From: a virus
IMG/VR virus record: IMGVR_UViG_3300010347_002547
Coordinates: 1 to 39,147 of that record
Length of the DNA: 39,147 nucleotides
Reading direction: 5' to 3' (one strand)
In this document: piece after piece, positions 291 through 20,156 of the stretch
Position numbering within the stretch: the first letter of the stretch is position 1
Layout of the letters: each line of letters opens with the position of its first letter
Translations under genes and position numbers: made by a program
The notes under the pieces: model-generated
Told to the model about the DNA's origin: nothing
Seen by the model: only the letters and a program-made list of their open reading frames with translations
Database searches by the model: none

Positions 291-293
291 GGT

Positions 294-3554: not shown

Positions 3555-3589
3555 TGGACATCATCTGGACAAATTGACAAAAATGGACA
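3555..3589. repeat. Four short direct repeats T(G/T)GACA just upstream of the terS start
   Basis: TGGACA at 3555, 3566 and 3584; TTGACA at 3574. Confidence 0.5.
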
Positions 3590-3631
3590 TTATGCAATTA
3601 GTACTCGGCTCTGGAGTCGCCGCCATTGCCG

Positions 3632-4012: not shown

Positions 4013-4065
4013 CCTCCTCAATCTATATGTCTGTGGTCCGATAATATTATCAGAATTTAGACAGT

Positions 4066-4293
4066 CTATTTGCACCTGCACCTCACCAAGACACATGCGC
4101 GTCCCCCCTGCACGATAGATTCTGTCTCGACTTCGCCAGCGTTTTCAAGCCGCCTGACTGCCTGCTGGATCTTTCCAATGGTCCAAGGCCACCTACCCAT
4201 TTGCTCCTTGGCCTTGCCGAGGAGTTGATAGAGATTTAATCCGGGATTTTCTCGGACCAGAGTCTTGACCTGGTAGTCTGTGAAATTCATCAC
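4066..4293 (-). CDS. Small winged-helix-like DNA-binding protein
   Basis: 75 aa; pattern LVRENPGLNLYQL...KIQQAVRRLENAGEV resembles a wHTH. ATGA overlap with the upstream gene. Confidence 0.55.
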   Translation of the reverse strand: MMNFTDYQVKTLVRENPGLNLYQLLGKAKEQMGRWPWTIGKIQQAVRRLENAGEVETESIVQGGRACVLVRCRCK

Positions 4294-4463
4294 TGCTTCA
4301 CCAACTTCTCCAGCCGTCTAGTCCACGCCCGGACGCTGTTCTCTGCGATCTTTCGATCATCTTCCAGACGTTTGATTGCTGTAGAGATGCTCAGCTCTTT
4401 TGCCTTCCAGTATTCCAGCTCGTTCTGGGCGAGCTGGATATCCGAGTCCTTCCTGGAGCTCAT
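4290..4463 (-). CDS. Small coiled-coil hypothetical protein
   Basis: MSSRKDSDIQLAQNELEYWKAKEL...; start reassigned to ATG 4463, which forms an ATGA overlap with the stop at 4460. Confidence 0.6.
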   Translation of the reverse strand: MSSRKDSDIQLAQNELEYWKAKELSISTAIKRLEDDRKIAENSVRAWTRRLEKLVKQ

Positions 4464-5428
4464 AGATCGGCCCCCTGCGATCTGAGCCGCACACGCACGG
4501 ACTGCTCGCCGTAGTAGTAGCCTTCCAGGTTCAGAGCCTCTGAGATCTGCTTCGGGTTCATTCCAGTCCGCCACATATCCCACATCTTCTGGTCCAGCTC
4601 GGCGCGGCTGATTGGTACAGGATCGGGCATCTCCTCGTTTGATGAGACTGCATCTGCGTCGGAGTTGATCTGATCTTGGCGACCCATCTCTTTGGGCATC
4701 GGGGCATTGTGGGCCATCTCGTCATGGGATTCGGAGGAGCGCTTCTTTCGGATCTCCTGATGGCGTGCCATCACATCGCCTATGGTACAGTCGTGTCCTC
4801 TGCTCCGGAGAGCCTCGTGGATCTCTTTGAATTTCACACCCGCATCTCTTTGTGCATCGATGAAATCATCCTCGCTGTGTGGAATCCTCGGGGGTGCTCG
4901 GCGGGTGGTTTGCGCTTTCGTGGAGGTGCTTGTCTCGTTCTGAATTGTATCTTGCGTCTCCTTCACAGATTTTTCAACTATTCGGGAATCCCGAATAGTT
5001 GGACGCTCTTCAACCATCTGGGTATCCCGGATAGTTGGATCGGAGTGAGCAAGTTCTCCACTCAAAGCTGCATATGCCTCCTTCCTCAGACCTTCGGCCT
5101 TTTGATCCTGTTTGTATTTCCAGTAGCGCATCCTCGCAGCCTTCGGAGTGATGTTACCTGCCTCGGCTGCGATAGCCGGCCAGGACCGGCGCTTCCTATC
5201 TGGCCCCAGCGACTCCCTGAGCTCCACAACCTTCTCGGTGATCCTCTGGCTCTCTTCAGGATCGTAATATCGAGCCGCCAGGCCTGTCCTCTGTGGGTGG
5301 AATCCCTGAGAGAGCTTGATTGCTACGTCGATGTGTCCTCGGATGAGGTTGATCTCGTTCAGCCGGTCGAGCGGAACTGCCCCCTCTGGGGGAAACAGGA
5401 TTTTCAGAATCTCTGCCTCAGTGCTCAT
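4460..5428 (-). CDS. Hypothetical protein (322 aa) with several HTH-like segments
   Basis: Start reassigned to ATG 5428 (AGGAG upstream, ATGA overlap). HTH-like stretches SWPAIAAEAGNITPKAARMRY and GMNPKQISEALNLEGY. Confidence 0.65.
   Translation of the reverse strand: MSTEAEILKILFPPEGAVPLDRLNEINLIRGHIDVAIKLSQGFHPQRTGLAARYYDPEESQRITEKVVELRESLGPDRKRRSWPAIAAEAGNITPKAARMRYWKYKQDQKAEGLRKEAYAALSGELAHSDPTIRDTQMVEERPTIRDSRIVEKSVKETQDTIQNETSTSTKAQTTRRAPPRIPHSEDDFIDAQRDAGVKFKEIHEALRSRGHDCTIGDVMARHQEIRKKRSSESHDEMAHNAPMPKEMGRQDQINSDADAVSSNEEMPDPVPISRAELDQKMWDMWRTGMNPKQISEALNLEGYYYGEQSVRVRLRSQGADL
4975..5037. repeat. Tandem pair of 27-bp palindromes (36-bp period) inside a CDS
   Basis: 4975-5001 CAACTATTCGGGA-A-TCCCGAATAGTTG has perfect 13-bp arms. 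5011-5037 CAACCATCTGGGT-A-TCCCGGATAGTTG has 3 mismatches. Confidence 0.85.
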
Positions 5429-5772
5429 GCTTTGACTCCTTGAATCTGGATATTGACCTCTTCTCCAACATGCGATCGATACCATTCCTCTTTTTGTGGA
5501 GGCCATGCTGGCCTAATTGTGGTCCAAAGATAGCCCCCCGTGAGGAGCAGCAGCACCAAGAACTCTTTTCCATGTGAAAGCTCAAAATTCCCAGGCTTCC
5601 ATCGGAACTTAGTGTCCCACTCGATGAACTCCTTCGAGAGCTGGCTGCGATCTACCTTCAGAACGGCCAGCAGGGTGGTTGGCCTGTCTGGGTCCATCAT
5701 ATCCATTGCAGAGAACGGCATCTTGCAGTACTCGGCAGCGAATTTGATTGTAGCTAAGCCCACTTTCTTCAT
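5425..5772 (-). CDS. Hypothetical protein
   Basis: ATG 5772 in the called frame, stop overlapping the next start. The TTIR...WY motif is weakly suggestive of an ASCH/PUA-like fold. Confidence 0.6.
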   Translation of the reverse strand: MKKVGLATIKFAAEYCKMPFSAMDMMDPDRPTTLLAVLKVDRSQLSKEFIEWDTKFRWKPGNFELSHGKEFLVLLLLTGGYLWTTIRPAWPPQKEEWYRSHVGEEVNIQIQGVKA

Positions 5773-5800
5773 CTCCAATTTTTATATTTCAACCGTCTTG

Positions 5801-5994
5801 AGTCTCGGAGACTTGAGACTCCAAGTCTCTCTCTACCCTTCCAACGTTACTAGCTGTTTATATACTATCTTTCAAATCCTTCCCTTCCCTCAACTAATAC
5901 ATACTACTCTACGACATACTTTTACTAGACTTAGTATGTCGCAGTCTGGCTTTTTACCCCCTTCTCTCCATCCGAGTCTCAAGTCTCCGAGACT
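5801..5994. repeat. Intergenic nested inverted repeats (candidate origin or regulatory element)
   Basis: Perfect 21-bp IR: AGTCTCGGAGACTTGAGACTC (5801-5821) and its reverse complement (5974-5994). Inner 9-bp IR: CGACATACT (5912-5920) and AGTATGTCG (5933-5941). Confidence 0.85.
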
Positions 5995-6010
5995 TGAAAT
6001 GGAGCTTAAC

Positions 6011-6820
6011 TCATCTGATTTTTTGGTTAAGTGTGATTACCCATCTCGCAGATGAATTCTCGGCCTTCATGACACGAAAGCGATCATCCATCCTACATGC
6101 ATCTCGCAGGCGAAAGGCTTGAGCTTTCGATATGCCTAGCCTTCCTCCTTTCTGTCCATGTGGTCCATGTAAGTTGCTGATGTACACTCCGCCGTTTGGG
6201 CTCTTCCTGAGTAGGCCGAAGAGTTCATCACGAAGCTTCTTCATGCCTTCAGAGTCTCGCCTGGACTCTTCCTTTTCGAGAAGCGGAGCCATCTTTTGGA
6301 CCTTTTCTTCCAGGGCTTTGATGCGCCGAAGTGCTATCGCCAGGTCCTCAGCCATGCGATTTTGCCACTCTTCTTGAGTCTCAGAGACTTTGATACCAGT
6401 CTCAGAGACTTTGTGACCGTCTGCTGATGCTGTATTAGGATTATCACTATCAGCAGGAGCATCAACAGTACCAGAGACTTTGTTACCTTTCTCTGATATC
6501 GTTTTTGTATGAACGTTAGCAGTAGGCTTATCTTCGGTCTCAGAGACTTTGTTACCTCTCTCTGGTATCGTTTCTGCTGAACCATTATCCTGAGGTATCA
6601 TCTCAGTCTCAGAGACTTTGATACCTGCGGCCAATAGCGATAATACTTGGCCGTCTGCCTGACGCGCCTGACCTGTCTCCGTGACCTTGGCCTTGCCTCT
6701 GGGCTTCGGCTTGCCTGCGTTCCTGGCCTTAATCTCTGCCCAGCAGGTTGAGCACATGCCGCGCCGCAAGTCCTTCAGGTCTACTTCTTTCTGGCAGCGC
6801 GGGCAGATGGCGAGGCTCAT
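6011..6820 (-). CDS. Zn-finger + 23-aa repeat region + C-terminal putative DNA-binding domain; candidate replication initiator
   Basis: Start ATG 6820 (ATGA overlap). N-terminal CPRC...CSTC, KVSET repeats, coiled coil and a basic C-terminal domain. Initiator role is inference. Confidence 0.6.
   Translation of the reverse strand: MSLAICPRCQKEVDLKDLRRGMCSTCWAEIKARNAGKPKPRGKAKVTETGQARQADGQVLSLLAAGIKVSETEMIPQDNGSAETIPERGNKVSETEDKPTANVHTKTISEKGNKVSGTVDAPADSDNPNTASADGHKVSETGIKVSETQEEWQNRMAEDLAIALRRIKALEEKVQKMAPLLEKEESRRDSEGMKKLRDELFGLLRKSPNGGVYISNLHGPHGQKGGRLGISKAQAFRLRDACRMDDRFRVMKAENSSARWVITLNQKIR
6377..6694. repeat. Iteron-like 21-bp motif (consensus AGTCTCAGAGACTTTGWTACC) on a 69-bp lattice
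   Basis: Copies start at 6398, 6467, 6536, 6605 and (degenerate) 6674, exactly 69 bp apart, plus one tandem copy at 6377. Core GTCTC-N-GAGAC is palindromic. Confidence 0.85.
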
Positions 6821-7044
6821 TCTCCCTCCAGCTTCTTCTTCCATAGCCAGTCTGGCACAATCACTCGGTCCTGAAGGACCCTGATCTGGGAGCGAGGCAG
6901 CCAGTATGTGCGGACCTTGCCGCGCTTCTCGATCCTCAGAAGGATTGCTTTCTCTGTCTTGGACTCTATGCTGATGGACGCCTGGTAGGTGGACTCATCG
7001 AGCGTTCTGAACTCGCTTTCTCCGAGCTTGAAGACTTGGCTCAT
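6817..7044 (-). CDS. Small hypothetical viral protein
   Basis: KTEKAILL...WLPRSQI...VPDWL pattern, reminiscent of small phage proteins. Overlaps both neighbours. Confidence 0.65.
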   Translation of the reverse strand: MSQVFKLGESEFRTLDESTYQASISIESKTEKAILLRIEKRGKVRTYWLPRSQIRVLQDRVIVPDWLWKKKLEGE

Positions 7045-7256
7045 GCCACCCTCTCTTGATAGTCTCGTATAGCGGCTCTGGAGAAGCTATCTGCCTCGCA
7101 GAGGTAAGAATATAGCCAGAAGGCAGCGTTCTTCCAGCCTTGGGCATCCTGCGCAGGACTAGAATCGAAGACTATCCCTTTTCCTCGCAGATCCGCTAAT
7201 GCAGCAGGCTGGAGAGCAGCTATACGCTCTAAGGTTTCCAAGAGACGTGCAGTCAC
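7041..7256 (-). CDS. Hypothetical protein
   Basis: GTG start in a GTGA overlap; stop overlaps the next ATG. Confidence 0.6.
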   Translation of the reverse strand: MTARLLETLERIAALQPAALADLRGKGIVFDSSPAQDAQGWKNAAFWLYSYLCEADSFSRAAIRDYQERVA

Positions 7257-7483
7257 TCTCGTGCCTCCACGCTCGCCCGGCCTACCATGACGCCCAGCGC
7301 CAGGGCCATCTTCTCAACATCAGAGAGTCCATCAAGCAGCGCCACAAGTAGCCTCTCCGGGTACTCCAGGCCATCCCCACGGACTCCCCGGGATTCCATG
7401 GCCTTCTCTTGGGCCTCTTCATACCGGCGCTCGACCTGGTCCCACTGCTGCTCAGAGAGGCAGAAGGCATCTACGACGGTCAA
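7253..7483 (-). CDS. Hypothetical protein
   Basis: Start reassigned to TTG 7483 (GGAGGT upstream, TTGA overlap with the stop at 7480). Confidence 0.6.
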   Translation of the reverse strand: MTVVDAFCLSEQQWDQVERRYEEAQEKAMESRGVRGDGLEYPERLLVALLDGLSDVEKMALALGVMVGRASVEARE

Positions 7484-7761
7484 GGCAAGACCTCCAGCCG
7501 GAATAATCCCAGATCCGACTCCCCTGAGTCGCGCCAATATGGCTCGATCTGGGCCTTAAACTCAACATGCTGCCCTGGCTCTGCTGGTATAGGCCCGTGC
7601 CAGTGCCACGGCCTGATCCAGGCATGGTCCAGGTGGCCGCCAATCGGCGTCTCCACGTCAGAGAGCAGGATGAACCCCTGCTTGCTCCGGCCTGCATAGC
7701 GAGCAGAGAAGCGAGCCCGCGTGATCCCGGCCCGCTGCAGGGCTGCAAGTTCGGGCCTCAT
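7480..7761 (-). CDS. Hypothetical protein, possibly a small beta-barrel/OB-like fold
   Basis: 93 aa with overlaps on both sides; beta-rich pattern (GQHVEFKAQIEPY). Confidence 0.6.
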   Translation of the reverse strand: MRPELAALQRAGITRARFSARYAGRSKQGFILLSDVETPIGGHLDHAWIRPWHWHGPIPAEPGQHVEFKAQIEPYWRDSGESDLGLFRLEVLP

Positions 7762-7997
7762 GCGCTCGCCCCCGTCGCATTGATCAGCCAGATGCTGTTG
7801 TTTCCCTGCAGGATGCTCACGTTAATGGAGTCCCCAATGACGTGGAGCGTATGCAGGCCCGCGCCGGAGCTCTGGCCGGTGATCTGCAGGGTGACCGCCT
7901 GGCCGGTGACTGCGAATACCTCTAGGAGAGCAAACGTCAGGATGGCAACCCAGACGGCAATTGCGGCGATCCAAAAGATTGGGTTGTCGCGTATCAT
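7758..7997 (-). CDS. Small membrane-anchored or secreted protein
   Basis: Start ATG 7997 (ATGA overlap). Hydrophobic N-terminus IFWIAAIAVWVAILTFALL followed by a beta-rich segment. Confidence 0.6.
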   Translation of the reverse strand: MIRDNPIFWIAAIAVWVAILTFALLEVFAVTGQAVTLQITGQSSGAGLHTLHVIGDSINVSILQGNNSIWLINATGASA

Positions 7998-8233
7998 ACG
8001 CTGCACCTCCCGGCCCGGTCCCTGCCCATGATCACGACTCGCTGGCCTACCAGTGGCCTCAGATCTGCCACGAGGTCGGGCGAGATCTCGATCATCATGT
8101 TCTCGACCTGGGCTATGCCCTCGCCGAGTCCCCGGAGCACTCCGATGCATATGCCGTTGGCCGGCAGGGCGATAGGTTCAGAGGATTCACTGATGTCAGA
8201 AAACCTTATAGCCGCGCAGGCAGATGAACTCAT
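7994..8233 (-). CDS. Hypothetical protein
   Basis: 79 aa, coupled to both neighbours by 4-nt overlaps. Confidence 0.55.
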   Translation of the reverse strand: MSSSACAAIRFSDISESSEPIALPANGICIGVLRGLGEGIAQVENMMIEISPDLVADLRPLVGQRVVIMGRDRAGRCSV

Positions 8234-8505
8234 GAGAATCTCGCCTCCGGAGCTGGGCAGGGATTCTCCCTTCCCATTATCGCGGCTTTTCCTTTCTCTG
8301 TTATAGTTGCTCGAGCAAGCCTCTTTTCTGATCTCCGGTCTACAGAAATGAGCTGCTGAGCCTCAAGATCAAGCAGGCGTTTATACAGAACGCGTTGGCT
8401 GCGTCTATCTAAGAGAGCCTCTGCCGCTCTGGCCAAAGGCTGGCCAGGTCTCTTATCAATCTCCTTCAGGAGCTTGATATCGATCTCATCTAGTTCGGAC
8501 ATCAC
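8230..8505 (-). CDS. Winged-helix (MarR/ArsR-like) DNA-binding protein
   Basis: GTG 8505 in a GTGA overlap. LDEIDIKLLKEI...LYKRLLDLEAQQLI...ATITEKGK matches the wHTH pattern. Confidence 0.65.
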   Translation of the reverse strand: MMSELDEIDIKLLKEIDKRPGQPLARAAEALLDRRSQRVLYKRLLDLEAQQLISVDRRSEKRLARATITEKGKAAIMGRENPCPAPEARFS

Positions 8506-8729
8506 GCCTTCCCGAGCCAGGGAAAGCGGACTGCATACCCAGCACAAACCTCACAAATAGCAAGGTTATTATCCTTGCAGCGCACGGTAGTATGCAGCCG
8601 GGGTTGGTCCTCACAGCCTGCGAAGTTGAGAGGGAACGGCCCTGGCTCTTGATTCTCGTAGCTTTGGCTATCTAAGTTTTCTTTGATTATATCTCTTTTG
8701 GTATTCCCAAGATATCGATTCTCGGACAT
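8502..8729 (-). CDS. Hypothetical protein with Cys cluster
   Basis: 75 aa; C...C...CEVC at the C-terminus; AGAGG upstream. Confidence 0.5.
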   Translation of the reverse strand: MSENRYLGNTKRDIIKENLDSQSYENQEPGPFPLNFAGCEDQPRLHTTVRCKDNNLAICEVCAGYAVRFPWLGKA

Positions 8730-8764
8730 AATATACCTCTACCTAGCGTGCGGGGCGAAAGTGA

Positions 8765-9448
8765 TCATGCTTTCACCCTCGTGTCCTTTTTGCATTTCTG
8801 GCAGTGATAGACCTTAACTCTCTGCCCCTCAAATTCACTCACAGTGGAGTATTCAGCCATAGAGCTGCAGTGCTTGCATACGATTGGCTCCTCATCCACT
8901 ATGCAGAAGCCCTCAGGATCGTCTCCGGTGCTGATGTTCAGCAGGAGCATTAGTGCATACTTTTTCGCTTGAGTTTGCGCTTTGGAGAATGCTTTGTCGG
9001 AGGAGTCATATCCCTGCCCGATACCTTCACTCTCGATCAGAGCTCCAGTTTCCGAGTCGATGACGGAGAGGGTGCACTTTGTCGTGACTAACTCCCATAC
9101 ACCTCCCGTCCGGGTAGTGCGCGGTTGGCGGTCCAGTACATCTAGCCGGCAAACTGTCGCGAGCTTTGCCTCGACTAATGCCTGATTGACTTTCCCGATA
9201 ATGGCATCCGAGGAGACATATTTGTAGCCCTGGTCTGCATTTGCCTTGTCTTTCGGCACCACAGCGCAGGTCTGCATGACTTGGCAGAGCTTCGCTGCCA
9301 GCTTCGCGAGGTCCGGGTTGGAATGGCTGCACTGACTGGGATGGCTGTCGCAGAATAGCGGCATGCCATCGAAAGGCGGGTGGTGAGGTATGAACTCCTG
9401 CGGTGCGGCCTCTTGCGGCTTCATGATAGTCTGCTGCTTGGCGGCCAT
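8765..9448 (-). CDS. ERF-family single-strand annealing protein with C-terminal Zn-ribbon
   Basis: KDKANADQGYKY, GQGYDSSDKAFSKAQTQAKKYALMLLLNISTGDDPE are ERF hallmarks; CKHC...CQKC tail. Start ATG 9448 with GGAGGT RBS. Confidence 0.85.
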   Translation of the reverse strand: MAAKQQTIMKPQEAAPQEFIPHHPPFDGMPLFCDSHPSQCSHSNPDLAKLAAKLCQVMQTCAVVPKDKANADQGYKYVSSDAIIGKVNQALVEAKLATVCRLDVLDRQPRTTRTGGVWELVTTKCTLSVIDSETGALIESEGIGQGYDSSDKAFSKAQTQAKKYALMLLLNISTGDDPEGFCIVDEEPIVCKHCSSMAEYSTVSEFEGQRVKVYHCQKCKKDTRVKA

Positions 9449-9450
9449 AG

Positions 9451-9597
9451 CTACACCTCCTTGCTGCCATTCAGCCATGCTACCCTCTTGGCAGCGTCTT
9501 CTCTCGAGTGGTGATCGCTTTCTGGGTGCCATTCCCCAGAAGGTGAGTAGAATCCCACCGTGAAAAGATGGGGTTCAGATCGGATATAGACGTACAT
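9451..9597 (-). CDS. Small hypothetical viral protein (48 aa)
   Basis: MYVYIRSEPHLFTVGFYSPSGEWHPESDH...AAKRVAWLNG; ATG 9597 follows the upstream stop at 9599. Confidence 0.65.
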   Translation of the reverse strand: MYVYIRSEPHLFTVGFYSPSGEWHPESDHHSREDAAKRVAWLNGSKEV

Positions 9598-9598
9598 T

Positions 9599-9925
9599 TC
9601 AGGCCACCCTTGCAGCCCTGCGCACCGGCCTATGATGGATCTCCATCCACCGCCTGCTCTCGGCCTCGATCTCGGCGCGGCACTCTGCACTCGCTCCCTC
9701 CTCCTCGTAATGGCAGCAGTTCCCACATCTGCGCCAGCCATTTCTGAACTCCACCGGCATCCACTTCTCCCCACAGACGGGGCATCTTTCGTACTCGTGG
9801 GATACCAGAAAGGGCTTCATGCTGCGGATGGCCGCGAGGACTGTCTCTGTGCGACGGTCCTCTGGGATCGATTCTATCTGGTCCTGCAGACGTTTCTCGA
9901 CTGCGATTTTCTTGGATCTGGACAT
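9599..9925 (-). CDS. Zn-finger protein, first gene of the leftward operon
   Basis: CPVC...CGNC; AGGTGA RBS upstream. Confidence 0.65.
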   Translation of the reverse strand: MSRSKKIAVEKRLQDQIESIPEDRRTETVLAAIRSMKPFLVSHEYERCPVCGEKWMPVEFRNGWRRCGNCCHYEEEGASAECRAEIEAESRRWMEIHHRPVRRAARVA

Positions 9926-10053
9926 CGACTTTCACCTGCCCTAATGGGCAATAACCTATTATTACCCAACTGTATATAAGTATTTTCCTAATATTTGGAA
10001 TAAAAAGGAAATAAAGGATAAGTATATATAGTTTAAACCCGTCATGAAGAACT
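9926..10053. promoter_or_regulatory. Divergent promoter region with TATA boxes and operator-like inverted repeats
   Basis: AT-rich; TATATAAG near 9974 and GTATATATAGTTTAAA near 10022. IR TGGGCAATAA-CCTA-TTATTACCCA (9945-9968, 9/10 match) and palindrome TGCCC-TAAT-GGGCA (9937-9950). Confidence 0.65.
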
Positions 10054-10251
10054 ATGCGTGAATATACCACAATAACGGAAATAGATGAGAGGGGTAGAAT
10101 GTTGATGCCTCTCGCTGTCCGAAAAGCGCTTGGTATCGAGAATAAAAAAGCGCTGCTAGAAATCAGAGTATCATTGGTCGATGCAAAGAAGGAAGAGAGC
10201 GAAAACCCTCTGAAGGCCCACGCTCCTGAATTCCTTCTCGCTTCAGCTTGA
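10054..10251 (+). CDS. AbrB/SpoVT-like transcriptional regulator
   Basis: TEIDERGRMLMPLAVRKALGI matches the AbrB (I/V)D-x-x-G-R-x-x-x-P-x-x-x-R motif. Confidence 0.8.
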   Translation: MREYTTITEIDERGRMLMPLAVRKALGIENKKALLEIRVSLVDAKKEESENPLKAHAPEFLLASA

Positions 10252-10316
10252 GACAGGCAGGTGCAACTGCATGTCCCAAGACGACATTAACCTGACTTCG
10301 GCTATTAATCTATCGG

Positions 10317-10439
10317 ATGATTGACAAGATGGGCCGCGTCTATGTGGATCGTAATCTGGCAGAGCAAGAGGTCTTAATAGTGGTTGTCAAGCCAAAACCA
10401 GAGGATAAGATCAACTACATTAAAGTAGGTAGATCCTGA
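10317..10439 (+). CDS. Second small AbrB-fold-like protein (40 aa), possibly frameshifted from ATG 10271
   Basis: MIDKMGRVYVDRNLAEQEVLIVVVK; below the ORF-track size cutoff. Confidence 0.45.
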   Translation: MIDKMGRVYVDRNLAEQEVLIVVVKPKPEDKINYIKVGRS

Positions 10440-10504
10440 AAAGAATGATTATCAAGCGGCCTAAGACCGACCTCTCAGGCCGCCGCAGACAAAGGTGTCA
10501 CCCA

Positions 10505-10672
10505 ATGTCCGAGAATATTATAGAATTATCCCCAGCAATAAACCTTTTTGATATCTCTAATCACCCTGCTGAGGCCATAGTTGCCTTGATAGAAATGTTA
10601 AAGAGGCAAGAACAAGAGATATTGGACAGCAGGATACGGCCATCTGCTGACCACACTGGACGATGGGGATGA
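10505..10672 (+). CDS. Small hypothetical protein
   Basis: Start reassigned to ATG 10505 (AGGTG upstream). Confidence 0.5.
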   Translation: MSENIIELSPAINLFDISNHPAEAIVALIEMLKRQEQEILDSRIRPSADHTGRWG

Positions 10673-10682
10673 GGTGGCTTAA

Positions 10683-11162
10683 ATGGCTGTGCATAATCTG
10701 AAGCTGCTGATAGTAGCCGTTCTGTGCTTCCTTGTTGGCATGGCTTCAGCCACCACAGTTGAGGTGTTCACAGCCAACCATGTTGGATTTGGAGATCAGG
10801 AGTGGGTTGACTGGAGCGATAAGCTATCGTATAATGCTGAAGAGATTGAGAGACTGCAGAAGACGCTGAATAAGGACCACTACAACCAGAGCTACGAAGT
10901 CAATGTCTTCGACTGTGCTGATGCTTCCATCCTCTGCGAACAATGGCTGGAGAAGCATGGCTATGATGCCTACATCTTGGTCGATGTCAACAGAGTTCAC
11001 GCTTGGGTGGTGGTGCGGTTTGATGATGGAAGCTATGTGCCCGTAGAGGCAACTGCAGACATGGCCCATACGATGGGCAAAATAAATTGGAATCCCAAAT
11101 ATCTGCAGGGATATGTGTACGATACCGCTCTGGAGCTGATGGTGGCAACTGGAAAGATCTGA
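10683..11162 (+). CDS. Secreted transglutaminase-like (papain-fold) Cys-His-Glu protein
   Basis: Signal peptide LLIVAVLCFLVGMASA; FDCAD (Cys), VHAWVVV (His), VPVEAT (acid); GAGGTG RBS. Confidence 0.7.
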   Translation: MAVHNLKLLIVAVLCFLVGMASATTVEVFTANHVGFGDQEWVDWSDKLSYNAEEIERLQKTLNKDHYNQSYEVNVFDCADASILCEQWLEKHGYDAYILVDVNRVHAWVVVRFDDGSYVPVEATADMAHTMGKINWNPKYLQGYVYDTALELMVATGKI

Positions 11163-11320
11163 ATGGCAAAAAGGCATCGAGCAGCCTGTATAAGGCTGTC
11201 AGAGACATTGAGATCCTGGCCAGCGGTGACCCCGAGAAGGATCGCGAGGAGAGCGAAGAATACTTCCGAGAAGAAAAACTCATATACAATAAATTAATAT
11301 CATATATACAAGAGGGGAAA

Positions 11321-12373
11321 ATGGATACTCCAGCAGTAGTAATTTTTGTAGATATCCGTGGGTTTACAAGGTGGTCAGAGGGTATAGAAGCATTTCAATA
11401 TATCGATAAATTTATTTCGAGCTTTTATGAGATACTTTGTAATAAGTTCCATAATTGTAGCTTTATCAAGCAGTTGGGCGATGGAGCTATGATTATTGAG
11501 GAAATCGAAGAGGATTACTCGGGAGACTATTTGAGGGATACATTAAAAAAGGAATTAAATAAAATCAAAGACGTTGAAAATGAATTTCGAGAATTATGTG
11601 ATGATTTTTCTGAATTACATGGATATCACACAGAATTGAATTTAGGGTGGGGAATAGTACGGGGTGTTGTGAAATCCTTGGAGGATAAAAGAGATTATAT
11701 TGGAGCGAATATTAATAAATGTGCGCGATTGTGTGGGATTGCTAGACCTTTCGGCATCGTTATAGAAAGGGACGATTTTCCAAATCTCCCAGAAGACACA
11801 GAGTATAACTTTGCCAAGCAAATTAGAAAGCTAGAAGGCATAGTCGATGACGTTAATGTGTGGGTCACTACGGAGATATCTAATCAATTGGTCCCAAGGG
11901 AGAAAATACGAGAATCGCCTGAGGTCCATGTCGCGGGATTGTGCATAAAGACTGAAAGAGAGGGAGTCAAAGCACTAATCGCAAAAAGAAATCCAAACAG
12001 AAAACTATACCCTTCATTGTATGAGGGGTGTGGAGGTCAACTTAAATACTCTGAATCATTTGAGGATGGTGTAAAAAGGCATTATTACAGAGAAATGCAG
12101 ATAGATGTTCAGGTAGTAAAGACTATCCACAGTTTTTATGAAATAAGAGTGCCCGAAGAACCACTTATCCCAGGAATAAGATTTTTATGTAAATACGTGG
12201 CTGGGGATCCTGTGTCTAAAAACCATTCAGATATTAGATGGGTTAGCGAGGATGAATTGAAGTCAATCTCAGAAAACGAATTTATTCCTGGTCTCAAAGA
12301 CGAATTTATTAATTTCATAGAAAGATTTAATCATGAGAGTCAAAAAGAATTGAATTTGGGAAGAAAAAATTGA
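11321..12373 (+). CDS. Class III nucleotidyl cyclase fused to a C-terminal NUDIX-fold domain
   Basis: FVDIRGF and IKQLGDG (two metal-binding Asp), GWGIVRG, DYIG, NKCAR (catalytic N/R). Second half has EVHVAGLC, LIAKRNPNRKLYPSLYEGCGG and a Nudix-box variant. Likely start ATG 11321 after GAGGGG; frame is open upstream to 11087. Confidence 0.85.
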   Translation: MDTPAVVIFVDIRGFTRWSEGIEAFQYIDKFISSFYEILCNKFHNCSFIKQLGDGAMIIEEIEEDYSGDYLRDTLKKELNKIKDVENEFRELCDDFSELHGYHTELNLGWGIVRGVVKSLEDKRDYIGANINKCARLCGIARPFGIVIERDDFPNLPEDTEYNFAKQIRKLEGIVDDVNVWVTTEISNQLVPREKIRESPEVHVAGLCIKTEREGVKALIAKRNPNRKLYPSLYEGCGGQLKYSESFEDGVKRHYYREMQIDVQVVKTIHSFYEIRVPEEPLIPGIRFLCKYVAGDPVSKNHSDIRWVSEDELKSISENEFIPGLKDEFINFIERFNHESQKELNLGRKN

Positions 12374-13279
12374 TTGCCCGCTCACGTATTCCAGCATATC
12401 GGTTATAATTTTTTCTACAAATATCGTAGGAACAAAACAGCCAAAATCGTTAAGAGCGTCAAACTAGCGATACCTAGCCAAGGAATCAGCGTTAACCGAC
12501 AATCAAAAACTATTTGGATACCATCTCTGAAGCTGTCATTAAAATATGGATTTCCTGGTAACTTTGAGAAAGTCAACCAGATTGAGATCGGAGAGGAATA
12601 CGCTTATGTGTCGGTATCTGTTTCTGAACCGAAACTCATTCAGGCCAAGAAATGGATAGGTGTTGACAGAAATACAGTGGGACACATAGTGGTGGTGTCT
12701 GATCCTGAAACAGGCGCGGTGATCAAGCTTGGGAAGTCTGCTTTCCACGTTCATCAAAAGTACAAGAATATTCGCAGAAGACTTCAGAAGAAAGGCAAGT
12801 ACAAAAAAGCGCGGCAAATCAAAGATAAAGAAAGGCGGATTACCAGAGATATCAACCACAAGATATCCCGAAAGATTGTTGATGTTGCCAAAGAGTCCGG
12901 TAAAGGTATCAAACTCGAAGATCTAACCGGAATCAAAAGCAGTAAGCATAACAAAAAATCGTTCCGCCGCATCAAGAACAGTTGGCCATTCTACCAACTT
13001 CAAACTCAGATAGAATACAAGGCCAAGCTGCTTGGTGTAGAAGTCGCTTATGTTGATCCAGCGTACACTTCGCAAATATGCAGTAGATGCGGACTCATAG
13101 GAGACAGGAACAAAAAGAAATTCAAGTGTTCGCATTGTGGACACGTCGATCAAGCCGATGCAAACGCGGGATTTAACATCGCCGAGCGTCCGCGCATAGA
13201 TCGATCAGCCAAAGACAGGGATTTGGTTGAGGGGAACACTGACATCCCCAAAGCTGTTTTGGCTCGAATCCGGAGCTGA
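12374..13279 (+). CDS. tnpB: IS200/IS605-family TnpB, N-terminally shortened
   Basis: RuvC residues IGVD, LEDL, DANAGFN and Zn finger CSRC/CSHC present. Only 301 aa with about 97 aa before RuvC-I, versus about 170 aa in the other two copies. No left-end hairpin seen. Confidence 0.85.
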   Translation: MPAHVFQHIGYNFFYKYRRNKTAKIVKSVKLAIPSQGISVNRQSKTIWIPSLKLSLKYGFPGNFEKVNQIEIGEEYAYVSVSVSEPKLIQAKKWIGVDRNTVGHIVVVSDPETGAVIKLGKSAFHVHQKYKNIRRRLQKKGKYKKARQIKDKERRITRDINHKISRKIVDVAKESGKGIKLEDLTGIKSSKHNKKSFRRIKNSWPFYQLQTQIEYKAKLLGVEVAYVDPAYTSQICSRCGLIGDRNKKKFKCSHCGHVDQADANAGFNIAERPRIDRSAKDRDLVEGNTDIPKAVLARIRS

Positions 13280-13319
13280 CAGCAAACACCATATGCGTTG
13301 GCTATGGAACGTATGTCAG
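13280..13319 (+). ncRNA. Right end / omega-RNA 3' part of the first tnpB element
   Basis: Imperfect hairpin CCATATGC-GTTG-GCTATGG (13289-13307) followed by GTATGTCAG, resembling IS605-type right ends. Confidence 0.5.
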
Positions 13320-13353
13320 AAGAGATACCAATTTTGGAAGTAGGAGAACTAAC

Positions 13354-13557
13354 ATGAAAACAGAAACCAATGAATTTGATCTTTATGTGTGCGAGATGCT
13401 ACGAGACAAGCTGTGTAAGATTGGAGCTGATGGTCTTTGTAATCCAATAAAAGAGTGCGGATGTTCGTTAGATGATTTAGCACCGTGCGGTTGCATTTAT
13501 ATAAGAGAGTGTGCGGCGGCAAAAAAGAGTCGGAAAGACCACTACACGATTATGTAG
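13354..13557 (+). CDS. Small Cys-rich protein
   Basis: GADGLCNPIKECGCSLDDLAPC motif; AGGAG RBS. Confidence 0.65.
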   Translation: MKTETNEFDLYVCEMLRDKLCKIGADGLCNPIKECGCSLDDLAPCGCIYIRECAAAKKSRKDHYTIM

Positions 13558-14113
13558 GAATTTCCAATAGATCGAAAGGCCTGTGCACTCCTGGACTGTA
13601 CTTTTCTGCTGCTTCAAGTGCCATCAAAACACGGCTCTGGCTAGTGATTCCGAATGACTCTTCGAAGCCATCAGTTGTGTGTAAGCTGCCTAGTGCGTAT
13701 GGCTCGCCGCTGCCAATCACAGCATAATCCGAGACGTGCTCATTGATATCGTAGGTATAACTTATACGAAATATTGAGTCTTGTATTGCCACGATAAATG
13801 TGGCATCGCAGCTGTAGTCGTTGCCTTCCGAATCTTTGAGATGGTGCTTTTCTATTAGGCTTTTTAGTGCTGGCACAAAATCATGTGTCATGTATGAGAA
13901 CAGGTTGGTAGAATTGTTTTCGGGTGGCTCAAACAAATTCAACATAATGTTGTTTTCTGCGTAGCGGCCAGCCGATCCTAGTATCATGGTGTTTCCAATC
14001 TTTTTGATTTTCGGCCACTTCGACAGCTCTGTGTAGTTGTCGTGGTATGTTATGAGGCGGTCTGCGCCTACAATGATCTTATCCGGCGTCTTTAGAGCCA
14101 CAATACATGTCAT
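13550..14113 (-). CDS. HslV/proteasome beta-subunit-like Ntn-hydrolase
   Basis: N-terminal M-T-C-I-V-A, GAD at 15-17, PKIKK, GSAG, IGSG and ALEAAEKYSPGV; GGAGG RBS. Confidence 0.8.
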   Translation of the reverse strand: MTCIVALKTPDKIIVGADRLITYHDNYTELSKWPKIKKIGNTMILGSAGRYAENNIMLNLFEPPENNSTNLFSYMTHDFVPALKSLIEKHHLKDSEGNDYSCDATFIVAIQDSIFRISYTYDINEHVSDYAVIGSGEPYALGSLHTTDGFEESFGITSQSRVLMALEAAEKYSPGVHRPFDLLEIPT

Positions 14114-14124
14114 TTGGATACCTC

Positions 14125-14409
14125 CTATTTTTTTCTGCGGATTGTAGTCGAAGAAGATAGCGGCTTTTTCGTGCCTTTTCCGTATGTTATGCCGCCTAGT
14201 GGTATAATTTCTGTCTCGAATCTACCATGGTTGATAGCCGGTTGAGTAATTATCAGTTCAGCTGCTATCAATTCTTTGATGGCGGCTATTATTTCATCTG
14301 CTTCTTGGTATGTCTTGTATGTTATGAGATCATCTATCGTGACAATGCGTGATTCGTTGCGGGTGACTATTTTATCAAAAAGTTTTTGAGCGGATGGTGT
14401 TAGATCCAT
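14125..14409 (-). CDS. Hypothetical protein, possibly winged helix
   Basis: 94 aa; helix-rich N-half ending ELIAAELII followed by a beta hairpin. Confidence 0.55.
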   Translation of the reverse strand: MDLTPSAQKLFDKIVTRNESRIVTIDDLITYKTYQEADEIIAAIKELIAAELIITQPAINHGRFETEIIPLGGITYGKGTKKPLSSSTTIRRKK

Positions 14410-14560: not shown

Positions 14561-15760
14561 GTCAACTACCACGGCCTGAAGACCATGGCTTGTAGCTAGT
14601 GGTTAGCCCGCTACGATTGGCTGGTTGACAGACAGCCTGCTACGATCAGATCTACTGAAGGCAGCGATATTTCTGGACGCATTCAAATCAGCATCGATCT
14701 GGAAGCCGCAACTCTTGCACTTGAAGGTTCTACCGTTGCGGTTCTCCTTCTTCTGAAATCCACACCGAGAACAGGTACGAGAAGTATATCTTGGATCTAT
14801 GGCTACTGCCTTCTTTCCGATAGCTGCCGCTTTGTATTCCACGATACTTCTTAGTTCTGCGAAACTCCATTTACCAAGCTTCTTATTCTTCTTACCGTTC
14901 CTGATGTTGGTTAGATCTTCCAAAACGATTACGTCATATGGTTTTGATATGATCCAGTTAGCGATCTGATGATTGGTGTCCTTTTGAAACCGTCTCTCTC
15001 GACCTGAAAGTTTTTGCAGCTTTCTTTTAGCAGATCGAGTGCCTATGGACTGAAGTTTTGATCGCAAATACTGATACTTACCCTTGATAGCCTTTACGGA
15101 ACCCGACTTCCAAAAAGTGTTATCACTGCATACTGCTATGTTATTGATTCCAAGATCTACCCCTAGCCGTCTATCACACGTCATTGGTTCTGGATCAGGC
15201 TGTTCTACCTGAATATTGAGATAACATGATTTTTTGGCTATCTTAAGTTGAGCGTTCATGACTTTCCATGTAGCATATTTCTGGTAGTAGTCTGCTAACT
15301 TGAAATCATATCGCAATCTACCAAAAGTCGTTGTAAGCTTGCAGTATCCAGATTCCAAGAATACCTTCATGGTTCTGGTATCGAATCTGACAGCTCCCAG
15401 AGAATGCTTGAAAGGCTTCTTCTCGAAGTGAAGCCTCTTAAGCATCTCGCTGGCTTGGTCCCTAGCAGTCTGAATCAGGGCAGAGGGTAGGGTAGGATAT
15501 TTATCTCGAAGATCTTTGTATGTGGCTTTGTTGAGTTTGGTCTTGTTGTAATCATGTGCCGCAAAACCATAGTCTATGACATCTTGACAGGCAGCATTCC
15601 AAAGCTTCGCTGTCTGGATGAGTTCATTAGATCTATCGAGCTTTATCTTTATCGTGCGGTACATATTATTAGACCATTAGTGCGTTTATTATATTTATAG
15701 TTTTTGGTGTTAAGGGCAAAGGGTTCCGCTTTCATCACCATCCTGAAGGGTGGGGTCTTT
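14561..15760 (-). mobile_element. tnpB-only IS200/IS605 (IS1341-like) element; left boundary approximate
   Basis: Right-end hairpin CCATGGTC-TTCA-GGCCGTGG (14569-14588) then TAGTTGAC. Left-end hairpin CCACCC-TTCA-GGATGG (15738-15753) with the same TTCA loop. No tnpA. Confidence 0.8.
14603..15664 (-). CDS. tnpB: IS605-family TnpB RNA-guided nuclease
   Basis: LGVDLG, VLEDL, DADLNASRN RuvC triad; CSRC/CKSC Zn finger; 353 aa. Confidence 0.95.
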   Translation of the reverse strand: MYRTIKIKLDRSNELIQTAKLWNAACQDVIDYGFAAHDYNKTKLNKATYKDLRDKYPTLPSALIQTARDQASEMLKRLHFEKKPFKHSLGAVRFDTRTMKVFLESGYCKLTTTFGRLRYDFKLADYYQKYATWKVMNAQLKIAKKSCYLNIQVEQPDPEPMTCDRRLGVDLGINNIAVCSDNTFWKSGSVKAIKGKYQYLRSKLQSIGTRSAKRKLQKLSGRERRFQKDTNHQIANWIISKPYDVIVLEDLTNIRNGKKNKKLGKWSFAELRSIVEYKAAAIGKKAVAIDPRYTSRTCSRCGFQKKENRNGRTFKCKSCGFQIDADLNASRNIAAFSRSDRSRLSVNQPIVAG

Positions 15761-17796: not shown

Positions 17797-19674
17797 CTAG
17801 TAGAATTTTCGGCGCGGAAACTCGTACTCACGGCGAGTCTTGCTCCAATTATCAATTTTTGTGAAGTAACCTACAATCCTGGTTATATGCGAAAGGATTG
17901 GGGCGCCGCACATTGGACATGTATCGGAGTTACCGCAGACAGTAACATGACCGTTCTTGCACTCGCCAAATGAATAGTTTATGCTGAAGTGTGAGACGCC
18001 GTGCTTAACGGAATATTCGATAAGATGTTTCATGACGGCTGGATCTGTTATTCTGTCCTGGATGTTCAAGTGGAGGATGCCGCCGCCGGACAGAATGTCT
18101 TGGAAGTTGCCGGTTAGGTTGATGCGCTCCGGTAAAGATGATTCCAGAATCAGCGGTATATATTGATTGGAATATAATTCAAATGGTATCTTTTCGTTGC
18201 CGAAAAGTACTTTGTCTTTTGCTACGAATTTGGTGGCTACGGTCTCTCCGGGAATCTCTTCGACATTGAACGGATTACCGGTTTGTTGACTCAGGCTTGC
18301 GGCGAACTTCTCAATGTAAGTCAGTACATCTTTGACGAATTGTGTGCCGTTCGGATCGCGAATATCAAGCCCCATGAAGTAGCACATTTCGTAGACGCCG
18401 ATTATACCGATCGTAGAAAACATTCGGCTGAGCGAGAACCATTTCAGTGGATTATAGAACTGTAGGAAGCCTTGGTCGATGCGACGCTTCAATATTTCTT
18501 CGCGGTGTACCAAAAGCAGGTCGCGACAAACCTCTAGTTGGTGTTGCAGATGCTCATAGAATTTTGTTGTGTCCTTGTTGGACCGTAGAGCAATGCGTGG
18601 TAGATTAATCGTGACCACTCTATGCGATCCAAGGTTGGTTCCGCCGTTGCCGAAGCTATCGACTCTTGGTAGCTGAGTACGATCCGACAGCAATCTGCAA
18701 CATGATGCAATCTTGTTGCCAGTGTTCGCGTAGATGTTGAAGCAGCCGGTTTTACAGTTCACTGCAGAAATGAACGACAAGAACTCTTTATCGACTATAT
18801 CATGATTTTCCGATACCTGGAAGTTAATCGTGACTACTGGAAATCTGTATGGGCTTCCTGATGCAGGATCGCCTTCTGAGAACCACTTACAAAATATTTT
18901 TTGGATCTGCATTATGTACTCGAAATCAGGTTTACTACCGTCCGGATAAATGTGCTGACTGAATATCTTTATAAGATTCGGCATATCAAATATCGAGATA
19001 TTAATGAATGGAGATTGACCACCTACTCGAAAATTGTTGTTGTAGGTGTGGATGGCTCGTTGCAGATCATTGATGATGCGATCTTTTGATAGGTGTTCTT
19101 TTTTGGCGTACCAGGCATAATTGACTAAGAGATCGGATAGGGCGATCGCACCGGCCCACGCCTGACTACAATCCATGCCGAATTCTATGCATTGCGATAT
19201 GAAACTGTCGGCACGTTTTGGCACTAAGCTGTGTAGCTGACCGTATGGTCGACCTTGTTGCATTAACATTGATGTACTGACTGCCATACAATACGGTTGT
19301 TGTACTCCAACGCCAGAGCTGTCATGAAAATAGACGTCGCCGAACAAAATCGATTTTATGAGATGATTTGCACGTTCGGTACCGAATCGTCTCTCGGCGT
19401 ACCTATGAATTAGGTAATAACCTTCAATTTTCTGAATCCCTCGTACAATTTCTGCTCCATAATTATTTGGTGATATTCCACTATCCGCGTTCGCGTTTGC
19501 GTCTATGCTAATATCTGGTAGCTTTTCTGTGAAATATTGGTGGGAGAGCTGACCCACGTCTAGGCATCGACGACTTATTCCGTCAATGTCAAGAAGTTTT
19601 CTGCCATTTTCGTGTTGGTTAAGTTTGTTGTATATTTCGTCAAATGTGTCGCTGAATGTTGTATCGATTCTCAT
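17797..19674 (-). CDS. nrdD: Class III (anaerobic) ribonucleotide reductase, no ATP-cone
   Basis: Finger loop ASCCRL, GSHRVVTINLPR, EEIPGE, Zn site CKNGH...CPMC, glycyl radical motif TRIVGYF. ATG 19674. Confidence 0.93.
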   Translation of the reverse strand: MRIDTTFSDTFDEIYNKLNQHENGRKLLDIDGISRRCLDVGQLSHQYFTEKLPDISIDANANADSGISPNNYGAEIVRGIQKIEGYYLIHRYAERRFGTERANHLIKSILFGDVYFHDSSGVGVQQPYCMAVSTSMLMQQGRPYGQLHSLVPKRADSFISQCIEFGMDCSQAWAGAIALSDLLVNYAWYAKKEHLSKDRIINDLQRAIHTYNNNFRVGGQSPFINISIFDMPNLIKIFSQHIYPDGSKPDFEYIMQIQKIFCKWFSEGDPASGSPYRFPVVTINFQVSENHDIVDKEFLSFISAVNCKTGCFNIYANTGNKIASCCRLLSDRTQLPRVDSFGNGGTNLGSHRVVTINLPRIALRSNKDTTKFYEHLQHQLEVCRDLLLVHREEILKRRIDQGFLQFYNPLKWFSLSRMFSTIGIIGVYEMCYFMGLDIRDPNGTQFVKDVLTYIEKFAASLSQQTGNPFNVEEIPGETVATKFVAKDKVLFGNEKIPFELYSNQYIPLILESSLPERINLTGNFQDILSGGGILHLNIQDRITDPAVMKHLIEYSVKHGVSHFSINYSFGECKNGHVTVCGNSDTCPMCGAPILSHITRIVGYFTKIDNWSKTRREYEFPRRKFY

Positions 19675-19675
19675 G

Positions 19676-20155
19676 TTAAGCACCACTGTAAAGTTTTGTC
19701 AATGATTTTTGGAAATTGGTTGAAATTGGATGTCCGCGTATCCAGACTTGTTGATTGCTGGACGCGGGAAATCCATTGGTGGCTAATGACTGCACGTACG
19801 GTCCATCTATGATAATAGTTATTACCTGCCTGATATGTTCCGGTATTTCATGGTAGTAGAAGCCGGTGTACAGCACAGTAAGGATCTTGCAGTTAGTTGC
19901 TAGGTTATATAGTGCGTTTGGCTGGTAGGCGGGATCTCCGCCAGTAAATACGACACTATCATAGAAGTCCGGATACATAGCTAAGTGATCTAGGATATCT
20001 TCAGTCGTGTAATCATGGCCATTCGTGAAGTTCTGTAATGTTGGATTCTGGCATCCGATGCAATTATGATTACAGCCTTGAAAAAATATGTTAAAAGATA
20101 TGCCGATGCCATCAATGGTTGAGGTTGATGTACCGGCTATGCGAATTGGTGTCAT
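19676..20155 (-). CDS. nrdG: Anaerobic RNR activating radical SAM enzyme
   Basis: FQGCNHNCIGCQNP (CxxxCxxC), TGGDP, IIDGPY, SSNQ; adjacent to nrdD. Confidence 0.92.
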   Translation of the reverse strand: MTPIRIAGTSTSTIDGIGISFNIFFQGCNHNCIGCQNPTLQNFTNGHDYTTEDILDHLAMYPDFYDSVVFTGGDPAYQPNALYNLATNCKILTVLYTGFYYHEIPEHIRQVITIIIDGPYVQSLATNGFPASSNQQVWIRGHPISTNFQKSLTKLYSGA

Positions 20156-20156
20156 G

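Follow-up and report, generated by a model that had tools for sequence, protein, structure and literature searches.

Pycsar defence systems combine PycC, a class III-type cyclase, with a PycTM or PycTIR effector, Pucsar systems use cyclic GMP (cGMP), and PycTM is the '3TM pJV1-spdB3' effector of both (10.64898/2026.08.12.744502; PMC11224242). Pycsar-2 cyclases carry a C-terminal AGS-C sensor (10.64898/2026.08.12.744502; PMC11224242), and the Pucsar preprint, a survey of cyclase architectures related to Pycsar, never uses the word NUDIX (10.64898/2026.08.12.744502). Here we describe a gene encoding a class III nucleotidyl cyclase fused to a NUDIX-fold domain (protein P0001) in the virus record IMGVR_UViG_3300010347_002547. 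The window, which is the whole stretch of DNA that was analysed, is the complete IMG/VR record (39,147 bp, linear; ~28% complete as judged by CheckV), and its source is an archaeal tailed virus from anaerobic digesters. We propose, with a probability of roughly 45%, that P0001 is a Pycsar-like synthase of cyclic nucleotide monophosphates (cNMPs) in which the NUDIX domain serves both for dimerisation and for nucleotide sensing.

Like the cyclases of Pycsar, Pycsar-2, and Pucsar, P0001 is a small soluble class III-type enzyme with a full catalytic set, and a nucleotide-binding-type domain lies C-terminal to its cyclase, as AGS-C does in Pycsar-2. As in Pycsar, its relatives at loci L009, L013, and L033 have a PycTM-type 3TM gene directly upstream, with a diverged form at L012. 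Unlike in Pycsar, P0001 has no significant match to the PycC hidden Markov model (HMM), its Lys/Asp pair points to a purine (adenine) product and not to a pyrimidine one, its C-terminal domain is a NUDIX domain, most members of the family, including the viral one, are without an adjacent effector, and the family evolves slowly. With canonical class III adenylyl cyclases (CyaC of Spirulina, 1wc1; CyaB of P. aeruginosa, 3r5g; Ma1120; Rv1264), P0001 shares the fold, the two metal-binding Asp residues, the Asn/Arg pair, and the Lys/Asp adenine pair, but its identity to them is below 25%, it is without the usual N-terminal sensor, and its predicted dimer contact comes from the C-terminal NUDIX domain. 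Similarly, the NUDIX half shares its fold, the G-x5-E-x7-R motif, and the last Glu of the box with MutT/MutT2/NudG/YfcD-type proteins, whereas its box reads RH...xE in place of RE..EE, it is fused to a cyclase, and three His residues (H254, H203, and H302) are conserved in it.

Architecture and predicted dimer of P0001

The gene, its two domains, and the residues that define them are located as follows.

11321..12373, plus strand: cyclase-NUDIX gene encoding P0001, 350 codons and a TGA stop, no internal stops
11321..11884, plus strand: class III nucleotidyl cyclase domain, residues 1-188 (Pfam PF00211, Foldseek)
11351-11353, plus strand: codon of D11, metal-binding Asp
11468-11470, plus strand: codon of K50, adenine-type pair
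11480-11482, plus strand: codon of D54, metal-binding Asp
11693-11695, plus strand: codon of D125, adenine-type pair
11714-11716, plus strand: codon of N132, transition-state Asn
11726-11728, plus strand: codon of R136, transition-state Arg
11921..12370, plus strand: RH-subtype NUDIX-fold domain with a C-terminal helix, residues 201-350 (Pfam PF00293, Foldseek)
12035..12103, plus strand: variant Nudix box G239-x5-E245-x7-R253-H254-x-x-R257-E258-x-x-I261, read from the sequence

The reading frame is already open from a TTG at 11087, and the ATG at 11321 (MDTPAVV...) was taken as the start because the full-length homologues (47-77% identity) all begin at the same Met. Both Pfam matches were barely over threshold, with Guanylate_cyc (PF00211) scoring 23.7 bits on residues 6-137 against a cut-off of 21.9 and NUDIX (PF00293) scoring 22.9 bits on residues 207-315 against a cut-off of 21.1. 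What these marginal scores leave weak is settled for both folds by the AlphaFold2 model, which was built on 131 homologues and has a mean predicted local distance difference test score (pLDDT) of 95.2, together with Foldseek. The N-terminal half matched Cya2 (2w01), CyaC (1wc1), CyaB (3r5g), and Ma1120 with E values of 1e-9 to 1e-7 and target TM scores of 0.66-0.81, and it also matched Rv1900c. The C-terminal half matched MutT2 (5zrh), MutT (3grn), an Ap4A hydrolase, and RppH, with target TM scores of 0.73-0.80 for MutT2, MutT, and RppH, and its nearest solved relative by sequence profile was E. coli YfcD (2fkb, E 2e-10). An initial annotation of this DNA had read the gene as a stand-alone, single-chain class III cyclase-NUDIX fusion, and this is confirmed.

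All six canonical class III residues are present in P0001, namely D11 (in FVDIRGF), D54 (in LGDG), N132 and R136 (in NINKCAR), K50, and D125. Each is invariant or at least 90% conserved among the 131 homologues and aligns with its equivalent in mammalian adenylate cyclase 8 (HMMER alignment), so the complete catalytic set claimed in the initial annotation is genuine. Given the K50/D125 pair, the likely product of P0001 is cyclic AMP (cAMP).

The NUDIX half departs from the canonical box, G-x5-E-x7-R-E-U-x-E-E-x-G-U, and has R253-H254-x-x-R257-E258-x-Q instead. Two of the three box Glu residues are replaced family-wide (RE to RH and EE to RE) with G-x5-E-x7-R kept, and the rewiring that had been noticed in the viral gene is therefore the norm of its family. 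The resulting pattern, R-[basic or His]-x3-E with the last Glu alone kept, is one that we take to resemble that of type 1 isopentenyl diphosphate (IPP) isomerase. We know of no hydrolase activity for any RH-subtype NUDIX protein. A 3',5'-cNMP has no pyrophosphate bond and is not a NUDIX substrate; therefore, the domain does not remove the signal made by P0001 itself, and the earlier suggestion that it destroys the signal is unlikely to be correct.

The RH box also occurs in many stand-alone NUDIX proteins (~150-190 amino acids), in one TIR-NUDIX fusion, and in one radical-SAM-NUDIX fusion, in agreement with the initial statement that NUDIX domains appear in nucleotide-signalling conflict systems. 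One set of such entries (P0152 and P0181; L103 and L104) covers the TIR-NUDIX fusion, a SIR2-kinase-2xNUDIX protein, and stand-alone RH-type NUDIX. The SIR2-kinase protein is a more distant NUDIX relative, with canonical RE boxes, and a stand-alone RH-type NUDIX adjoins HicB/VapB and PglZ-type genes in one setting and lies within a prophage-like contig with integrase and portal genes in another. The PADLOC candidate PDC-S07 matched residues 201-316 of P0001 (E 1.7e-12), and this match was rejected as support for defence, as it reflects general NUDIX similarity and a ~130-amino-acid NUDIX present in 99% of Enterobacter genomes.

Metagenomic relatives with a third domain differ in how far they conserve the two halves of the protein. 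Seven of them (P0161, P0166, P0168, P0182, P0184, P0192, and P0194; 610-652 amino acids) consist of a cyclase, a decayed NUDIX, and a C-terminal radical SAM domain that matches MoaA and prokaryotic viperin best, though weakly. In an alignment of nine sequences that includes these seven, the six cyclase residues are invariant, E245, R253, and H254 are missing from the three-domain relatives, and E201, H203, R223, R227, and G238-G239 are invariant even with a decayed Nudix box, a pattern of conservation that agrees with ligand binding. The retention of the cyclase residues and loss of the box argue that the cyclase is the constant catalytic part and that the NUDIX domain is more ligand-binding-like. 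The three-domain arrangement looks like an undescribed nucleotide-modifying architecture. Split forms also exist, one with the cyclase only (P0162) and one with the NUDIX only (P0142), and neither their contigs nor that of P0161 are long enough to reveal the genomic context.

Class III cyclases must dimerise, head to tail, to form their active sites. When P0001 was modelled as a homodimer, its score was 0.51, compared to 0.00 for the best control. Among proteins with solved structures, 20 of 30 one-chain pairs and 1 of 23 single chains attained the same mark. At least 28% of the contacts agreed across runs, and the partner pLDDT was at least 80. The confident contacts were all NUDIX-NUDIX and involved the conserved segments 197-202, 240-247, and 281-285 (267-285 in a wider listing of the interface).

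We suggest that P0001 would act as a self-contained, probably homodimeric second-messenger synthase. Its cyclase domain would make a 3',5'-cyclic nucleotide, with the K50/D125 pair pointing to cAMP, and its C-terminal NUDIX fold would hold the dimer together and bind a nucleoside-diphosphate-type ligand, perhaps hydrolysing it slowly. Ligand-dependent geometry of the NUDIX-held dimer could then be a simple switch that gates the cyclase, a role analogous to that of AGS-C, the C-terminal sensor in Pycsar-2. In the one actinobacterial clade where a PycTM-type gene is adjacent, its three-helix membrane product would apparently be the effector that responds to the signal, making a Pycsar-like conflict system, and the viral copy would serve inter-virus competition or the manipulation of host signalling.

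A sporadic family with PycTM partners in one clade

Full-length homologues of P0001 number more than 300, are ~340-360 amino acids long, and are found in Methanosarcinales, ANME-1, ANME-2, and Methanoperedens archaea and in many bacterial phyla. Carriage is sporadic: of 201 genomes from the family of Planotetraspora (Streptosporangiaceae), 7 have the gene, as do 3 of 201 from the ANME-2 HR1 order (Methanosarcinales), and it is missing from a further 400 genomes of the same actinobacterial class. This distribution and the ~50% identity across domains imply that the gene is accessory and has spread horizontally. Collections of phages, plasmids, and IMG/VR viruses contain almost no members of the family. 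With tblastn, no member was found in 50,697 phage records and one carrier, a 1.57-Mb Methylobacterium replicon, was found in 72,556 plasmid records; IMG/VR outside the window held no fusion, with just two distant NUDIX-only matches, and BFVD had no model spanning both domains. The cluster is labelled 'hypothetical protein' in the ESM Atlas, and our literature search for fusions of a cyclase with NUDIX turned up nothing published on this family.

We compared the neighbourhoods of 31 loci by all-against-all BLAST of the open reading frames (ORFs) within 7 kb, and the sole neighbour shared between loci was the PycTM-type gene. It lies directly upstream in 3 of the 5 members of one well-supported Streptosporangiaceae clade, and the matches at these three loci extend over the full PADLOC profile. 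These and the diverged relative at a fourth member of the clade, L012, are given here by locus.

L013: PycTM, directly upstream, co-oriented (PADLOC E 1.2e-15)
L009: PycTM, directly upstream, divergent (PADLOC E 5.5e-16)
L033: PycTM, directly upstream, divergent (PADLOC E 1.9e-13)
L012: diverged relative of the L013 gene, co-oriented, without a PADLOC match

The loci otherwise share no neighbours, so the PycTM and cyclase-NUDIX genes travel together, and the pair occurs in two orientations. One ANME-1 genome (G003) carries both a member of the cyclase-NUDIX family and, on a separate contig, an ordinary PycTM-cyclase pair, indicating that cNMP immunity exists in this host range. The ordinary pair (contig 116, L109:3272-4597, minus strand) comprises a 197-amino-acid PycTM (E 9e-22) followed by a 239-amino-acid class III cyclase-like ORF, beside a transposase. 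The PycTM model was also matched in a control genome, that of Methanosarcina acetivorans. A 296-amino-acid neighbour of P0007 that weakly matched CARF3 (E 1.7e-4) was dropped, being winged-helix-like and confined to that locus, and the small membrane ORFs adjoining L003, L010, L025, and L035 had no PADLOC match.

A number of results weigh against a Pycsar-like role. The PADLOC PycC HMM matched P0001 with an E value of only 0.024 (residues 5-62), so the protein is not a member of PycC, and the matches of PDB profiles at E < 0.01 included no PycC chain and were canonical adenylate cyclases instead, to which its cyclase is closer in sequence. The dimer model contained no confident cyclase-cyclase contacts. 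In the NUDIX half, at least 90% of the 131 homologues retain E245, R253, H254, and E258, so the domain may itself be catalytic. No neighbour was common to the whole family, and for the most part the homologues stand singly on chromosomes with housekeeping genes around them, as shown by Pfam matches to dnaK and adenine deaminase at the ANME-1 locus and to the arg operon and pheST at the Solwaraspora locus. The archaeal homologues nearest to the viral copy adjoin ribosomal, dapAB, or methanogenesis genes: P0007 lies in a ribosomal protein operon, P0006 has dapAB and S17e on one side and a transposase, type I restriction-modification genes, and HicB on the other, and P0003 is near ferredoxins and Thg1 and has a transposase gene immediately after it. 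Defence genes were not enriched, as 86 PADLOC families were matched by the 144 ORFs within 3 kb and 99 by the 106 ORFs at a distance of 5-10 kb, in a crude comparison that counts families rather than proteins and in which the control ORFs may share the same islands. Judged from its sequences, the family is under strong purifying selection and is slowly evolving, in contrast to the arms-race immune cyclases described in 10.64898/2026.08.12.744502. Among the ORFs of the window, which belong to a record that is only partly complete, there were no PycTM, PycTIR, cNMP-binding, CARF, or SAVED genes, as the initial annotation had found for an adjacent Pycsar-type effector. Finally, the RNA-library contigs that suggest expression of the viral copy (see below) may contain DNA.

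Several of these results favour a different reading, in which P0001 is an ordinary accessory cAMP synthase whose NUDIX domain reports a metabolic nucleotide, for example ADP-ribose, Ap4A, or a nucleoside diphosphate (NDP)-sugar, and the viral copy is an auxiliary gene that reprograms host physiology. The housekeeping settings of the mostly single homologues, the purifying selection, the adenine-type K50/D125 pair, and the lack of defence enrichment relative to the 5-10 kb control all agree with it, as does the presence in the virus of other host-type nucleotide genes (NrdD, NrdG-like, and Dcd/dUTPase-like). Nevertheless, a patchy distribution with transfer across domains would be unusual for a physiological regulator, and a PycTM-type gene adjoins the family at four loci, one of them diverged. 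In addition, the cNMP receptor PF00027 was not found in four archaeal carrier genomes, which are incomplete metagenome-assembled genomes, so that its absence is not implied. We therefore hold ordinary signalling to be unlikely, although it survives better than any other alternative, and prefer the Pycsar-like synthase with a dimerising NUDIX sensor. The link to cNMP conflict systems proposed at the outset is real for the part of the family that has a PycTM-type gene upstream, in three relatives and in diverged form in a fourth; it does not reach the majority of homologues, which have no such partner, sit mostly in chromosomal housekeeping settings, and show no PADLOC excess.

The viral copy and its polymorphic surroundings

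In a maximum-likelihood tree, viral P0001 falls within the archaeal clade, with the chromosomal P0003, P0006, and P0007 as its nearest relatives (support 99). The GC content of the gene is 36.7% (32.5% at third codon positions, GC3), compared to 42.3% for 15665 to the end of the window and 54.7% for bases 1-10000, which confirms that the gene is more AT-rich than the upstream block. It is in fact AT-richer than both flanks, and the larger outlier is the GC-rich left block. This left 10 kb (54.7% GC, GC3 0.61-0.71) holds ERF and ORFs of unknown function, and the remaining 10001-39147 is ~42% GC. The features around the gene are listed below, followed by contig depths in X3, a biogas DNA run.

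10683..11162, plus strand: upstream ORF of 159 amino acids with a hydrophobic N-terminal segment, possibly co-transcribed with the cyclase-NUDIX gene
11285-11310, plus strand: AT-rich stretch, possible promoter, proposed from sequence only
11312-11318, plus strand: purine-rich AGAGGGG, possible ribosome-binding site 5-11 nucleotides before the ATG, proposed on the same basis
11790..12330, plus strand: linker and NUDIX half, recurring elsewhere at 100% nucleotide identity (L105, 541 identical bases)
12374..13279, plus strand: TnpB remnant (IS200/605) with ~70 N-terminal residues missing (Pfam Cas12f1-like_TNB, E 2.5e-23)
14603-15664, minus strand: TnpB, full
33294-34409, plus strand: TnpB, full
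Left flank: X3 contig depth 133
10649-11853: X3 contig depth 157
11824-12419: X3 contig depth 376-555
TnpB remnant: X3 contig depth 27.6
Beyond the TnpB remnant: X3 contig depth 130

The gene lies in a variable region of the tailed virus that is rich in insertion sequences (IS), as expected from the accessory location first assigned to it. The TnpB remnant abuts the TGA of the gene in the same frame, its shortness being judged against the two full TnpBs of the window, and the three TnpBs are 35-39% identical to each other. The X3 depth is the same to the left and right of the accessory region (133 versus 130), which fits a single molecule better than a chimera made in assembly. Within the region, the uneven depth, the loose contig ends at 11824 and 12330, and L105 indicate that the accessory spot is polymorphic and that a NUDIX-only remnant circulates; around the segment shared with L105 there is unrelated AT-rich DNA upstream and a hairpin and the start of a full TnpB downstream. 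The nesting among archaeal genes, the foreign composition, and the IS200/605-rich polymorphic spot together make capture from a Methanosarcinales- or ANME-type host the most likely origin of the gene.

RNA-library contigs that are 100% identical to this DNA suggest that the gene is expressed in the virus. Those in X15 and X16, from one study, cover 10675-12205, which includes the 159-amino-acid ORF and most of the gene, and a single contig spans 10675-11380 across both; X17, from a second RNA study, covers just 10639-11258, upstream of the gene. No RNA-library contig lay over 10000-10640 or 12256-14200, and we drew no transcript ends from these gaps, which prove nothing. The AT-rich stretch that had been taken for the gene's own TATA-like element is present at 11285-11310 as a possible promoter, although the RNA-library contigs run through it from the upstream ORF. 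That ORF had no significant match in Pfam, PADLOC, or PDB and was not present beside the homologues of the cyclase-NUDIX gene in the neighbourhood comparison.

The composition and instability of this spot also raise the question of whether the gene is a recent neutral passenger that entered the virus by IS200/605-associated recombination and is heading to loss, whatever the function of the family in cells. Its foreign GC content and the shortened TnpB at its stop codon are consistent with this, as are the identical NUDIX-only copy adjoining another TnpB, the uneven depth and loose ends across 10649-13545 in X3, and the lack of any other virus with the fusion in IMG/VR, INPHARED, and BFVD. However, the viral ORF is uninterrupted, with none of the conserved residues lost, and other samples contain a full-length copy that is 99% identical (P0002). 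The region from 10000 to 14200 is also present in DNA runs of many studies, which sampled wastewater, biogas reactors, activated sludge, and anaerobic digesters, and RNA-library contigs match it. Carriage of the gene as a mere passenger is thus improbable, and we continue to favour a working, Pycsar-like enzyme in the virus.

The rest of the window is that of a tailed virus, with genes for baseplate J and a sheath-like protein; for replication and recombination it has a D5-type primase-helicase, ERF, and an ERCC4 nuclease. Its nucleotide-metabolism genes encode NrdD, an NrdG-like radical SAM protein, and a Dcd/dUTPase-like protein, and they form a module at 17797-20654 on the minus strand (NrdD, E 3.5e-91; an NrdG-like radical SAM/Fer4_12 ORF; and a Dcd/dUTPase-like ORF), in which the latter two matches come from a tally of small ORFs that were not individually assigned. 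A proteasome-beta/HslV-like protein with a Thr at position 2 is encoded at 13550-14113 on the minus strand (Pfam Proteasome, E 1.7e-8), and among solved structures it is closest to BPH (5ovu), a proteasome homologue from beta-proteobacteria.

Possible roles of the NUDIX half

Two other readings turn on what the NUDIX half does. In the first, P0001 is a bifunctional nucleotide enzyme in which an active MutT2/NudG/YfcD-type pyrophosphohydrolase acts on (modified) pyrimidine nucleotides and the cyclase consumes or regulates the pool of nucleoside triphosphates (NTPs) without making a messenger. The nearest solved relatives of the NUDIX half, which are YfcD, MutT, MutT2, and CTP pyrophosphohydrolases, would suit such an enzyme, as would the conservation of E245, R253, H254, and E258 and the fusion of relatives to a MoaA/viperin-like radical SAM domain, both of those enzyme types acting on NTPs. 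Conversely, two of the three box Glu residues have been lost across the family, the three-domain relatives have lost nearly the whole box and kept the cyclase residues, and the 31 loci have no nucleotide-metabolism neighbours, so that this reading appears very unlikely. We give hardly any credence to the second, counter-defence, in which the viral NUDIX half hydrolyses a pyrophosphate-bearing host immune nucleotide (e.g., one derived from ADP-ribose) or rebuilds nucleotide pools and the cyclase is dispensable: a NUDIX-only variant does outnumber the full gene in X3, and the NUDIX subtype occurs alone in the prophage-like contig, in the TIR fusion, and, as a more distant relative, in the SIR2 module, but the cellular family always keeps a cyclase with intact catalytic residues, the Nudix box is non-canonical, no anti-defence family was matched, and the NUDIX-only variant may be a mere deletion remnant. 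Nothing in these results supports the related suggestion that the viral protein jams host cNMP defence.

The Pycsar-like synthase with a NUDIX sensor can also be taken further, to a one-protein alarm in which the NUDIX domain is the infection sensor. It would bind a nucleotide that changes during viral takeover, such as a modified pyrimidine (d)NTP, ADP-ribose, or another NDP-X, and the NUDIX-NUDIX dimer would switch on the production of cAMP or another cNMP. Unlinked or variable effectors would read this signal, PycTM being the one in Streptosporangiaceae, and the archaeal virus would have captured the gene and would express it to exclude competitors or to pre-empt host cNMP immunity. We consider this extended version doubtful.

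To our knowledge, how Pycsar-type cyclases sense infection is not known, and a conserved NUDIX as the sole extra domain offers a concrete trigger for a Pycsar-type enzyme in the form of a small nucleotide ligand. The protein should be easy to express because it is 350 amino acids long, confidently modelled, and highly conserved, and three or four actinobacterial genomes supply a ready-made effector partner. The viral copy indicates that archaeal digester viruses exchange such genes with methanogen and ANME-type hosts, a setting in which cyclic-nucleotide immunity and counter-immunity have barely been explored. Even if P0001 proves to be a plain metabolic regulator, it would still be a new domain architecture for class III cyclases. 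If the one-protein alarm is true, P0001 would be the first cyclase of the Pycsar type known to be encoded by a virus of archaea and would provide a defined small-molecule trigger for a Pycsar-like system.

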